Assembly: GCA_022825385.1 (NCBI GenBank)
Contig: JAJDWX010000038.1
Coordinates: forward strand, 79,717-143,716
Source of the DNA: Rhodothermales bacterium
Lineage (GTDB): Bacteria > Bacteroidota > Rhodothermia > Rhodothermales > VXPQ01
Length of the DNA stretch: 64,000 nt
Direction of reading: 5' to 3'
Shown: positions 21,562-25,344 of the stretch, piece by piece
Position numbering within the stretch: the stretch's first letter is position 1
Layout of the letters: every line of letters starts with the position of its first letter
Notes under the pieces: model-generated
Databases searched by the model: none
What the model was told of the DNA's origin: nothing
What the model saw: the letters and a program-made list of their open reading frames with translations, nothing else
Translations under genes and position numbers: made by a program

Positions 21562-22377
21562 TCATTCAGAAAGTTCTTGCCGAACGGCGCCCGAAGGTCC
21601 CTCGTACCAGCGTTCGAGATACATTTCGACGAAACCGGGATGCTTTGAAGCAAGGGCGGCGACCATAGGTTTGAGATCGGCGTCGCCGAGGGAGGAAGCA
21701 AGAAACATAGCCGAAAGCTGAAGAGAATGGGCAAAAGAATCATACTCAAGATATTCTGGAATATATCCCTGTATATAGCGAATAGACAATTCGCGCAGCG
21801 TAGCGTGCGTCGAGGAATCTAACGGACGCCATCTTTCTACGGTTCTCGCAAGAGCGAGAAAAGCGCCATTCAATTCCTGTAAGGTGCGTTCGGAAGATTC
21901 AAGATAATCGAGTATCACGGGAAAGATGCGAGGACCGAACTCCGCAAGGCCAAGCGGAGCCATGCCGCCGAACTGAGACGCCTTCAGAAGAATCGGTATA
22001 GCCCGTTCATCTTCGAGCGCAGCCACGGAATATATCAACGGCTCAAGCAGCTCCTGAATATGATCGTCATCGTCAAAACCAGGATAGCCGGCGAGATTCA
22101 GATCGCACTGACTGTCGAGGGCGGCAATCAACCCATCGGCTATGAGAGGATCTACGCCACGACGAAGCCTATCGATTTTTTCTCTGGAGTATCCCCCAAT
22201 TACATGATAAACGGCTGCGTCGATCCTGTAAGGATCTCCGCTATGAAGCTCCATGGCGAGCGCGGCGGCCGAAGGCGCAGCGGCTTTCTGTTCCTGCGCT
22301 AGGCAAGAAGGCGAAAAGAAAAAAAGAACGATCAAAAAGATCGTTGCAAAGAGCAGGAAGCGAATCAAGGTGGTCAT
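21562..22377 (-). CDS. Secreted hypothetical protein, HEAT-like helical repeats
   Basis: Signal peptide MTTLIRFLLFATIFLIVLFFFSPSCLAQE. DERAIPILLKA-type HEAT-like segment. Directly downstream of the M15 lipoprotein gene. Confidence 0.6.
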   Translation of the reverse strand: MTTLIRFLLFATIFLIVLFFFSPSCLAQEQKAAAPSAAALAMELHSGDPYRIDAAVYHVIGGYSREKIDRLRRGVDPLIADGLIAALDSQCDLNLAGYPGFDDDDHIQELLEPLIYSVAALEDERAIPILLKASQFGGMAPLGLAEFGPRIFPVILDYLESSERTLQELNGAFLALARTVERWRPLDSSTHATLRELSIRYIQGYIPEYLEYDSFAHSLQLSAMFLASSLGDADLKPMVAALASKHPGFVEMYLERWYEGPSGAVRQELSE

Positions 22378-22425
22378 GGCGTATCGGATATGAAGGGTAA
22401 AGGAACGAGAAGGCGGTCAGCACGA

Positions 22426-23805
22426 TTATCGCGGAGGCATATTGCTAATATGAACATGCCCGGTCTTATCGTCTTCGCAATTGCGAGTTCCCCCATAAGT
22501 ATACGAACCGGGGCGAGCTTGTCGATTAAATAAAACAATAGAATTTTTAAGATCTTCCGTCCATGGACCAGTACGACAATCGCCATATATCTGAATATCC
22601 GCAGCCCTACCGTGTATATGGGCGGAATCGGTATAGCGGCCCTTGATCAAACGATTGCCTTCAGGACACCGGTAACCAGAATTTATGTTCAAAGTACCAT
22701 AAATTCCTTTGGAAATGAGAAAAGATTTTACTTCGCTATACAAGGCTTTCAGATCGGAATGTACGTAACCGTACCCGCCGTGCTTGCCATATTCTGTACT
22801 CTTATTATTTGTAACGAATATACCGTGATTATTCTTGAAATTAGAACAGGTAAAATTGGTTAAATCAGAATTATGCTCTTTGGCAAGATCACATTGATGC
22901 TGAGAAGAACAAGTACAATCATCTTTTTCATCTTCATTATTTCCATCGCTATTTTCACCACCGCCGCCGCCTCCGCCACCAATATCTCCACCACCACCTT
23001 CTCCACCTGCTACATACATACAAGATGAACATACTACTTCAATATCATATGCGCCACAAGTACGACTACTGGGGTCAGATACAACATATGTACAAGTCCT
23101 TCCATAGGTAACATAACAATTAATGTAACATATCGTACTACTATTTGCTATCGAATTAAATTTGCCAAAATTGTTTATATCAATCCGTTTTTTTAGAATC
23201 TTTGTTGAAAGTTCAATGGGAATTTTATTTGGGCGATAAAAATAAGAATCCACGTCTTCAAACATAATAGTATAACGGGACACGGTTATTTTTGTTTCAC
23301 CGAAATCTTTCGCTACATATCGTTCCACGTAGTCTGTGAAATTTTCCTTTGATAATTTTTCGTCGCTCGAAAAGGCGATTACGTGTCCAGAAACTACGTC
23401 TCCCGAAGGCTCCATATCCATAACGAGCGTGCGAACATGGTACATGACGCTATCGTAGCGTTCGTCCGTATATTTTCCGAGCGTCGTCGCCAAAACGAGC
23501 GTTTCTTCCGTTCCGTCTATCGACAAGACAACGGACTCGTTCCAGTCCGGAGGGAATTTCTCGATGAAGGCAAGCAACGCAAGGGAATCTTCGTCGCCTT
23601 CCGCCTTCGACAAGCGGTCTGACACTTCGAACTCGACCTGTTCCGCGTACCAGGCGCGGGCCTTGGCGGTTAGGCCATCGTTCGGGCCGATGTCCTCCAG
23701 AGAGGAGAAATCGGCGCCGGAATCGCAACCGGGCAGAAAGAGCGCGGCGGCGAACAGGCCCCAAAGGACAGGGAGCGTGCCGAAGCGGAAAGACCGGGTA
23801 CGCAT
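22426..23805 (-). CDS. Lipoprotein with a Cys-rich region, a poly-Gly linker and a C-terminal LAS/M15-type (DD-peptidase-like) zinc metallopeptidase domain
   Basis: The ORF start at 23826 is GTG; ATG 23805 gives MRTRSFRFGTLPVLWGLFAAALFLPGC (lipobox). GGEGGGGDIGGGGGGGGENSDGNNEDEKDD linker. SGYRCPEGNRLIKGRYTDSAHIHGRAADI...GHVHIS resembles the Peptidase_M15 (H-x6-D...H) pattern. A sampled line is about 35% G+C. Confidence 0.7.
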   Translation of the reverse strand: MRTRSFRFGTLPVLWGLFAAALFLPGCDSGADFSSLEDIGPNDGLTAKARAWYAEQVEFEVSDRLSKAEGDEDSLALLAFIEKFPPDWNESVVLSIDGTEETLVLATTLGKYTDERYDSVMYHVRTLVMDMEPSGDVVSGHVIAFSSDEKLSKENFTDYVERYVAKDFGETKITVSRYTIMFEDVDSYFYRPNKIPIELSTKILKKRIDINNFGKFNSIANSSTICYINCYVTYGRTCTYVVSDPSSRTCGAYDIEVVCSSCMYVAGGEGGGGDIGGGGGGGGENSDGNNEDEKDDCTCSSQHQCDLAKEHNSDLTNFTCSNFKNNHGIFVTNNKSTEYGKHGGYGYVHSDLKALYSEVKSFLISKGIYGTLNINSGYRCPEGNRLIKGRYTDSAHIHGRAADIQIYGDCRTGPWTEDLKNSIVLFNRQARPGSYTYGGTRNCEDDKTGHVHISNMPPR

Positions 23806-23990
23806 GAGCGAGGGAATAAAGAGCACGACGAAACCGCACGTCTCAACCTAACCGCTTATCTGGAGAATGTCAAGTCTGCTCACGAACCGATCAGATCAGG
23901 CCCCGCCGCAATCGATGCCTATGGCAACGCACGCTACCTTCATGCGGGATGTCGCCCGCAAGCGCGTCCGCCAGGCAGATTTTCTGCATT

Positions 23991-24098
23991 ATGCAAAAAT
24001 TGCATAGCATAACCGACTTCTATGCATAAATTGCATAATGAAAAAACGATCTATGCGTTATTTGCATAATAGGCCTATGTTCTATGCATTATTTGCAT
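23991..24098. promoter_or_regulatory. Array of four 15-bp operator-like inverted repeats (ATGCNNWAWTTGCAT) with 31-bp phasing
   Basis: ATGCAAAAATTGCAT at 23991, ATGCATAAATTGCAT at 24022, ATGCGTTATTTGCAT at 24053, ATGCATTATTTGCAT at 24084. Start-to-start spacing is 31, 31, 31 bp. The last three sit in 20-bp units TCTATGCRTWATTTGCATAA. Confidence 0.6.
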
Positions 24099-24252
24099 AA
24101 CCAGAGGGGGTTTTCGCCAAAAGGACCGCCTGTGCCCTGAATCTGCACGGGTTCCTGCTGTTTCTGCTCCCGAACCCCCGCTTGCTGACGGCAACAAGGG
24201 AACCAGGACGCCTGCACGGGCGAACGCGATGCGCCGCGCGAAGAGGTTTGGC

Positions 24253-25344
24253 TCAGCGCACCCTGAGATACTGCACGCTGAACAAGCGATTCGCATCCGT
24301 CCAGACCTTCTGCACGGCGAACCCGGCGCGCTCGGCAAGGCGCCGAAAACGCGCCAGCGTGAATTTGTACGAATACTCGACCAGGATCGGCTCGCCCTCG
24401 GCGAAACCGACGGAATGCCCGTTCACCCGCACGGTTTGGCGGCAGGCGCTCACCAGCGACATTTCGATGCGCCCCTCGTCAAGGTTGTAGACGGCCCGGT
24501 GCCGGAACGCATCCAGGTCGAAGGTGGCGCCCAGTTCCCGGTTCAGGCGGCGCAGCAGATTCTTGTTGAACGCCGCCGTAACGCCCTCGGCATCGTTGTA
24601 CGCCGCCTCAACGGTGGGCCGGTCTTTCTCCAGGTCCACCCCGATCAGCAACCCGCCGCCGGGACCCGCCGCCCCGGCCATGCGCGTCAGAAAATCAAGG
24701 GCCTCCCGCGGCTCGAAATTGCCTATGGTGGAGCCGGGAAAATAGACGACGGCGCGCGCCGCCTCGAACTCGGCGGACGGAACCGCAAACGAGGTCGTAT
24801 AGTCCGCGGCCAGGGCGCGCATGGGAATATGCGGGTACGCCGCCCGGAGCCGACGCATCGAGGCGGCCAAATGCTCTTCGGAAATATCGATCGCCACATA
24901 GCCCGCCGGGTCGGACATTTGGTCCAGCAGCAAGCGCGTCTTCAGGCTGCTTCCGCTGCCGTATTCGAGCAACAGGCAGCGCCGCCCCAGGCAGGCCACC
25001 ATCTCGTCAAGATGCGCCTGCATAATGGCCCGCTCCGTGGCGGTCGGATAATATGCTGAGAGCTCCGTGATCCGGTCGAAAAGACGGGACCCCGCGGCGT
25101 CGTAGAGATACTTGCAGGGCAGCGACTTGGGCGCGCGCCCCATGCCTTCCATCACGTCGGCGAGCAGGACGGCGGCGGAAGCGGAAAGCGCGGGGTCGCC
25201 CGCACCGCTCGCACCGGACGGTTCCTTGCCGTTGCGAAGGGGCGCTTGCTGCGCGGGGGATGCAGAGGGTGCAACGGGCGCCGAGGCGGACGAAGCCGGG
25301 CCTCCGTTGGCGTTTTCGGGGGAATCGGGTACGACGGGATTCAT
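24253..25344 (-). CDS. egtD: L-histidine N-alpha-methyltransferase (ergothioneine biosynthesis)
   Basis: ORF 24253..25860 trimmed to ATG 25344 (MNPVVPDSPE). YLYDAAGSRLFDRITELSAYYPTATE; LLEYGSGSSLKTRLLL. Downstream of egtB. Confidence 0.85.
   Translation of the reverse strand: MNPVVPDSPENANGGPASSASAPVAPSASPAQQAPLRNGKEPSGASGAGDPALSASAAVLLADVMEGMGRAPKSLPCKYLYDAAGSRLFDRITELSAYYPTATERAIMQAHLDEMVACLGRRCLLLEYGSGSSLKTRLLLDQMSDPAGYVAIDISEEHLAASMRRLRAAYPHIPMRALAADYTTSFAVPSAEFEAARAVVYFPGSTIGNFEPREALDFLTRMAGAAGPGGGLLIGVDLEKDRPTVEAAYNDAEGVTAAFNKNLLRRLNRELGATFDLDAFRHRAVYNLDEGRIEMSLVSACRQTVRVNGHSVGFAEGEPILVEYSYKFTLARFRRLAERAGFAVQKVWTDANRLFSVQYLRVR

Follow-up and report, generated by a model that had tools for sequence, protein, structure and literature searches.

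The intergenic DNA that follows egtD in an uncultured Rhodothermales bacterium carries four palindromes at one constant spacing, which raises the question of what kind of element they form and, if they are operators, of which regulator. We analyzed them in a 64,000-nucleotide stretch of DNA (the window), which is C1:79717-143716 of the host genome (G000), a metagenome-assembled genome of 3.02 Mb in 49 contigs that occurs in sponge metagenomes.

Four palindromes downstream of egtD

Four ATGC-N7-GCAT palindromes lie within 23991-24098, with a start-to-start spacing of 31, 31, and 31 bp; the start positions given in the earlier note (23991, 24022, 24053, and 24084) and the exact phasing that it described are both right. 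The sites fall into two pairs, and none is assigned to a strand. In pair A, the distal member is site 1 (23991-24005, attATGCAAAAATTGCATagc / ATGCAAAAATTGCAT, 33 bits with the weight matrix described below), the only perfect 6-3-6 palindrome among the four, and the second member, 31 bp away, is site 2 (24022-24036, tctATGCATAAATTGCATaat / ATGCATAAATTGCAT, 34 bits). Pair B, the closest pair to egtD and one with counterparts in 10 genomes of the genus, consists of site 3 (24053-24067, tctATGCGTTATTTGCATaat / ATGCGTTATTTGCAT, 31 bits) as its first member and site 4 (24084-24098, tctATGCATTATTTGCATaac / ATGCATTATTTGCAT) as its second. Each site has short symmetric flanks (tCT...A[G/A]a). A 20-bp unit, TCTATGCRTWATTTGCATAA, had been claimed for the last three sites; it is exact at sites 3 and 4 but has one mismatch at site 2. 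With one mismatch at most, the pattern in the earlier note matched the window six times against an expectation of 0.31, and six was reached in 0 of 100 shuffles.

The G+C content of the array is 32%, compared with 60% for the window. The array lies 155 nt past the stop (24253, minus strand) of egtD (24253-25344, minus strand; Pfam PF10017, E 2.5e-108), which encodes a histidine-specific methyltransferase and likely starts with MNPVV at 25344; a longer ORF extends to 25860. On its other side, it is 165 nt upstream of a lipoprotein ORF if this ORF starts at GTG 23826, and 186 nt upstream if it starts at the probable ATG 23805. The lipoprotein gene, peptidase M15-like (22426-23826, minus strand; PF08291), and the gene at 21562-22377, whose 271-aa protein has no Pfam match, make up a two-gene low-GC insert (21562-23826) between the array and a PSD1/DUF1553 gene. 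The insert has a G+C content of 47.5% overall and <40% in its middle, and looks horizontally acquired. No regulator gene adjoins the array, as had been noted before, and the candidate that we describe below is on another contig (C11). A promoter scan of the array region called no promoter; a weak minus-strand TTGACA-N17-TAGGTT (23873-23845) was read by eye and is below the threshold of the promoter tool. Separately, a GC-rich stretch of ~40 nt (24218-24258) runs from just past the egtD stop into the gene end, with weak copies elsewhere in the genome (C26:71858, 87.5% identity) and several in the relative G004.

A dispersed family of sites on one side of the helix

A genome-wide search for the motif, which the earlier note had recommended as a route to a regulon and its regulator, yielded both a set of sites and a candidate, the sole LysR-type gene of the genome. 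The motif matched on ten further contigs, nearly always at 31 bp. We made a 23-nt position weight matrix (PWM) from the sites and ran it over the genome, with the reversed genome as a control. The scan returned 13 loci with exactly two or four sites each (~45 sites in total, one locus being intragenic), and in the control a single match fell at 20-25 bits and nothing scored higher. The family consensus is a ~19-bp palindrome, tCTATGCAAAWWTTGCATAGa, in which the AT...AT positions are the most informative. Its 15-bp interrupted dyad has the T-N11-A form of operators bound by LysR-type transcriptional regulators (LTTRs). Both dyads are strong palindromes in most pairs, weaker sites in the arrays take the degenerate form ATAC...GTAT, and the spacers share a loose AGAAA-GGCC-TTTCT pattern.

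In the PWM scan of G000, 25 of 29 neighbor spacings were exactly 31 bp. Strong neighboring sites in G000 and its relatives gave nine other distinct spacings (41, 52, 53, 62, 63, 73, 83, 125, and 178 bp), and all nine deviate from whole multiples of 10.5 bp by no more than 0.1 turn, a fit equalled in 0 of 200,000 random draws; a helical period of 10.0 or 11.0 bp fitted poorly. Since all spacings are whole turns, every site lies on the same side of the helix. Such phasing is a prediction of cooperative protein binding, and is predicted neither by a mobile repeat nor by an RNA element. LTTR operators have two dyads two to five helical turns apart on the same DNA face, and the 31-bp pairs share this geometry, which is compatible with a tetramer. 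The previous suggestion of in-phase dimer sites for an oligomeric helix-turn-helix (HTH) protein thus agrees with the strict 31-bp pairing, with the whole-turn spacings, and with half-sites that are conserved while the spacers drift.

Besides the array in this window (C1:103707, egtD / M15 lipoprotein), arrays are found at ruvA and a divergent amidohydrolase gene (C4:164089), at genes for a PLP-decarboxylase and DoxX (C7:130857), and, as two arrays, at the LysR gene, a HAD remnant, and tRNA-Arg (C11:40636 and C11:41196). Others neighbor hydantoinase B and an unknown protein plus helicase (C12:23044), a sterol methyltransferase and a TonB-dependent receptor (C16:44742), a TPR protein and DUF5916 (C16:55555), a P460-like protein and folB (C24:26546), and Fic and exonuclease I, sbcB (C39:35175). 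The remaining three lie within adk (C24:35225), upstream of lptD (C37:52552), and between gyrA and a convergent aminotransferase gene (C48:2995). Placement directly after stops, between convergent ends (gyrA/aminotransferase), and inside adk is untypical for a classical LTTR. The genes that flank the 13 arrays share no common pathway or functional theme, and no regulator gene other than the LysR gene is among them. A 101-aa ORF between the two C11 arrays (C11:40767-41072; L017:4132-4437) was rejected as a regulator, since it is what remains of the C-terminal part of a HAD-type hydrolase and is probably a pseudogene.

Conservation and turnover across the genus

Motif matches number 7-48 per genome in all 12 genomes of the genus and 0-4 in 29 genomes from other genera of the family and order, the reversed-pattern control giving 0-1. 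In a scan of public metagenomes, high-GC copies of the motif occurred only on contigs 80-86% identical to G000, which we take to be from the same genus.

In 11 of the 12 genomes an array of one, two, four, or five sites occupies the orthologous position after egtD. The gene on its far side is a sulfatase gene in most of them, the PSD1/DUF1553 gene in one, and another lipoprotein gene in two; the M15 module is present only in G000 and one close relative. Because the position of the array is constant while the far-side gene varies, the array is older than the M15 insert, and to call it the operator of the M15 operon is unwarranted. The earlier description of the array as lying upstream of that operon therefore stands for its position only, the functional link being weak, and on this comparison the M15 lipoprotein gene appears to be a neighbor of the array rather than a demonstrable target.

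Ten further loci were retrieved from seven relatives with a chimeric query of flanking genes. Sites were found inside adk in seven of seven relatives, and in six of seven upstream of lptD (at an identical offset), upstream of ruvA (one to six sites), and at TPR / DUF5916. They were found in four of seven both after hydantoinase B and upstream of sbcB, in two of seven upstream of folB and after gyrA (six sites in one genome), in one at the TonB-dependent receptor, and in none at DoxX. The set of arrays thus has a conserved core (the LTTR's own gene, after egtD, adk, lptD, and ruvA) and a labile, fast-changing periphery. Between the two main clades, identity is 98% in ATGC/GCAT (inflated, since the sites were chosen by the PWM), 69% in the central seven positions, 62% in the 16-nt spacers, and 42% in the outer flanks.

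Copy number per locus ranges from 0 to 6 among close relatives, in which arrays have been gained or lost within expanded or rearranged intergenic DNA, and some arrays contain tandem duplications of 114 and 125 bp. At the TonB-receptor, folB, and gyrA loci, synteny breaks and other insertions confound the comparison with empty sites, and gain is hard to tell from loss. The appearance of new arrays in sub-lineages (folB and TonB-receptor loci) outpaces point mutation, and some copying process is at work too.

Two other kinds of repeat were seen in the genus. Upstream of folB in G003 (L077), the motif array has next to it a separate GC-rich tandem repeat with a unit of ~26 nt (cgcctcgcagcctcccgaagaacgcc). 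A MITE-like element of ~220-250 bp, with inverted ends such as ...ctgattaaatc / gatttaatcag..., is recurrent: it occurs upstream of the LysR gene in G007 (L044) and in G004 (L042), and after gyrA in G004 (L085).

Two sites written into adk

The intragenic locus is in adk (C24:34878-35537; L022:3654-4313), whose next gene downstream encodes a polyprenyl synthetase. In seven sister genera, adenylate kinase (Adk) reads D/E-V-P-T-D/E-V-I-V-D-R-L-S-K-R-R-V-H-K in GC-rich codons, and in all 12 genomes of the genus it reads D/E-L-C-T/I-N-C/D-I-I-E-R-L-S-M-R-R-M-H-R. The change is from D-V-P-T-D-V-I-V-D-R-L-S-K-R-R-V-H-K in the outgroup to D-L-C-T-N-C-I-I-E-R-L-S-M-R-R-M-H-R in the genus, whose codons spell cTATGCAcAAATTGCATAa and cTATGCGTAGAATGCATAg, 31 bp apart, with the length of Adk unchanged. 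Relative to the sister genera, six amino-acid replacements created the motif pair.

From this alignment, the adk sites evidently arose by substitution and were later retained. That substitutions built the pair at constant protein length is direct evidence that the DNA motif was selected, and a strong argument against an insertion element. Six residues of adenylate kinase altered in favor of two predicted operators are rare and clean evidence of DNA-level selection overriding protein sequence. We consider it very likely that the arrays are selected protein-binding sites of some kind.

The sole LysR-type regulator as candidate binder

G000 has a single PF00126 gene, an LTTR gene at C11:39703-40590 (minus strand), and exactly one is present in 11 of the 12 genomes of the genus. 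LTTRs are scarce across the order (0-5 per genome). All 12 genomes carry one ortholog of this LTTR (74-95% identity). A search of seven sister genera gave no homolog at E <= 1e-20, and identities do not exceed 44% in the rest of the order or 36% beyond it. The nearest solved structures include CbnR, BenM, and CatM as well as an unnamed LysR-family entry, 7w06. Directly after the LTTR gene is an MFS/Sugar_tr transporter gene.

A 31-bp pair, ctATAGAATAATTGCATaa ... ttATGCAGTTTTTGCATag, lies upstream of the LTTR gene in 11 of 12 genomes, its end ~25 nt from the start of the gene. In G007, the remaining genome, the MITE-like element described above (an insertion of ~250 bp, with inverted ends) has split the proximal site. 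The gene has a conserved upstream pair of its own, in a position that suits autoregulation, as is usual for a cognate LTTR gene, and is remote from the array in the window. Among the ~26 genes that flank the arrays, chance predicts about one transcription factor. Adjacency by itself is therefore weak evidence, and the assignment to this LTTR rests on the type of box, the geometry, the phyletic match, and the conserved position in combination.

Proposed model and comparison with known operators

With moderate confidence, we read the palindromes in the window as two adjacent operator pairs of the sole, genus-specific LTTR of G000, within a set of 13 loci. Each 15-bp ATGC-N7-GCAT dyad (T-N11-A) would accommodate a single dimer of winged-helix DNA-binding domains, and two dyads 31 bp (about three helical turns) apart would bind one LTTR tetramer, in the manner of the recognition and activation binding sites (RBS and ABS) of other LTTRs. 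The four sites would then seat two LTTR tetramers on the same DNA face. The bound LTTR may control the promoter of whichever minus-strand gene comes next, or may form a barrier after egtD. Most likely, the system is a known kind of switch, in which the unusual part is the multiplied, genome-wide, and partly gene-internal arrangement.

The closest match to the box is that of NtcB, an LTTR whose tetramer binds ATGC-N7-GCAT-N7-ATGC-N7-GCAT in the Anabaena nirA promoter (bioRxiv 10.1101/2022.10.10.511513). The half-sites, the 15-bp dyad, and the T-N11-A form are identical, and in both cases two dyads serve one tetramer, one per dimer of DNA-binding domains (this stoichiometry being a prediction for the arrays described here). 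The gap between dyads is 16 bp here (31 bp center to center) but 7 bp in NtcB (22 bp), and the NtcB box is at one promoter whereas the present sites are at 13 loci, with up to four sites each (six in relatives). NtcB and the LTTR are distant kin only (8h3v, E 5e-13).

LTTR sites generally comprise an RBS near -65, an ABS'' near -35, and an ABS' near -10, as in the "sliding dimer" model (PMC4730206). The RBS-ABS separations of ~30 and ~55 bp in BenM, CatM, and CbnR operators match the 31 and 52 bp observed here. The box of the BenM/CatM/CbnR type is ATAC-N7-GTAT, and ATAC...GTAT is also the form of the weaker array sites. A classical LTTR operator combines a strong site with one or two weak ones at a divergent promoter beside the regulator gene, whereas the arrays have mostly strong sites, are multiplied, lie far from the regulator, and are partly at gene ends or intragenic. 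Paired palindromes ~three helical turns apart are also typical of NrdR, whose paired 16-bp boxes stand 31-32 bp from each other in front of ribonucleotide reductase genes. An NrdR regulon was rejected, since its consensus differs and nrd genes flank 0 of the 13 arrays.

If the assignment is right, one horizontally acquired LTTR and ~13 predicted operator arrays would have appeared together at the root of one genus. The strict 31-bp pairing and the whole-turn spacing of pairs predict how several LTTR tetramers would share one DNA face. The result is a regulator and a target map, open to testing, for an uncultured sponge symbiont.

Alternative explanations

A serious rival, which we regard as possible, is that another sequence-specific protein (a nucleoid-associated protein, a boundary factor, or a member of another HTH family) binds the sites, and that the pair upstream of the LTTR gene is one more target. 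The arrays have an architectural rather than a pathway-specific look, being at gene ends, between convergent genes, inside adk, and beside unrelated genes; the single transcription factor among the flanking genes is what chance predicts, and similar 31-bp pairs occur elsewhere with no LysR neighbor. Yet genes for other regulators flank 0 of the 13 arrays, the ATGC-N7-GCAT / T-N11-A form and the paired geometry match LTTRs specifically, and the sole LTTR has the exact genus-level distribution of the motif together with the conserved upstream pair.

The LTTR itself may also have taken on an architectural role, although we consider this version unlikely. Gained at the origin of the genus, it would have been recruited as a boundary or chromatin-like factor instead of serving as a pathway-specific switch, its tetramers sitting on phased arrays of two to six dyads at gene borders and in the essential adk, and the arrays having spread by copying. 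Site number and position, and not the effector alone, would then tune local transcription or insulation.

The arrays could instead be a selfish or duplicative repeat family with no binding function (REP/BIME-, REPIN-, or MITE-like, or a 31-bp minisatellite). The copy number of 0-6 per locus in close relatives, the 114- and 125-bp tandem duplications, the gains and losses in sub-lineages, and the loose spacer pattern would all fit, and the earlier note had named a repeat family or MITE as what would refute its operators. The sites are indeed a dispersed family, but they have no transposon-like ends, target duplications, or RAYT gene. REP/RAYT elements were rejected because the genome has no Y1 transposase gene (PF01797) and the ~45 sites are at only 13 loci, one of them intragenic; a MITE was rejected because 60-nt flanks contain no shared termini or target duplications and the adk pair, made of substitutions and no insertion, left the gene length unchanged. 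An apparent enrichment of CCAGAGG in the array flanks failed a k-mer test. Also against a repeat family are the contrast between half-sites and spacers at orthologous loci (0.98 and 0.62 identity, for sites chosen by the PWM) and the helical phase that is kept throughout, and we regard this reading as improbable.

Action at the RNA level, by hairpins in the 3' UTR of egtD or the 5' UTR of the lipoprotein gene that serve as a terminator, stabilizer, or riboregulator, is in our view highly improbable. The transcribed strand has a better fold than shuffled sequence (z = -4.3), and stop codons precede many arrays; however, a good fold is automatic for repeated palindromes. The array has no Rfam match above noise and no terminator-like stem with a T-run within it, its half-sites are conserved by sequence and not by compensatory change, and an RNA function would give no reason for spacing by exactly 31 bp and by helical turns. 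The metatranscriptome contigs stop short of the array, which is weak evidence against this reading; they are four low-depth contigs from a related strain, cover 23334-23820 only, and are too sparse for transcript ends. Iterons of plasmid or phage type or a replication origin, a proposal of the earlier note to which AT-rich, regularly spaced repeats and a similar pair on phage-like contigs lend some color, are ruled out for practical purposes by the genome-wide distribution, the sites being palindromes rather than direct repeats at 13 dispersed chromosomal loci in conserved orthologous places, with no rep, dnaA, or integrase gene adjoining any of the 13 arrays.

Similar pairs outside the genus

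Pairs with a similar 31-bp spacing were found on unrelated AT-rich, phage-like or Bacteroidota-like contigs, and no LysR gene was found near these pairs on the metagenome contigs. In one group, TATATATGCAAAAATTGCATAGGTCAAGCATTAGCTATGCACAAATTGCATACC is conserved on eight aquatic metagenome and IMG/VR contigs with a G+C content of 28-33% (L186, L191, L193, L196, L198, L207, L221, and L225); it consists of two closely alike palindromes 31 bp apart, lies 120-340 bp from an ORF of 262-314 aa that has no Pfam match, and may be an unrelated phage operator of the same geometry. In another, a TATGCAAAWWTTGCATA pair with 31-bp spacing directly adjoins a DUF4301 gene on two unrelated contigs with a G+C content of 43% (L219:3951 and L230:6943).
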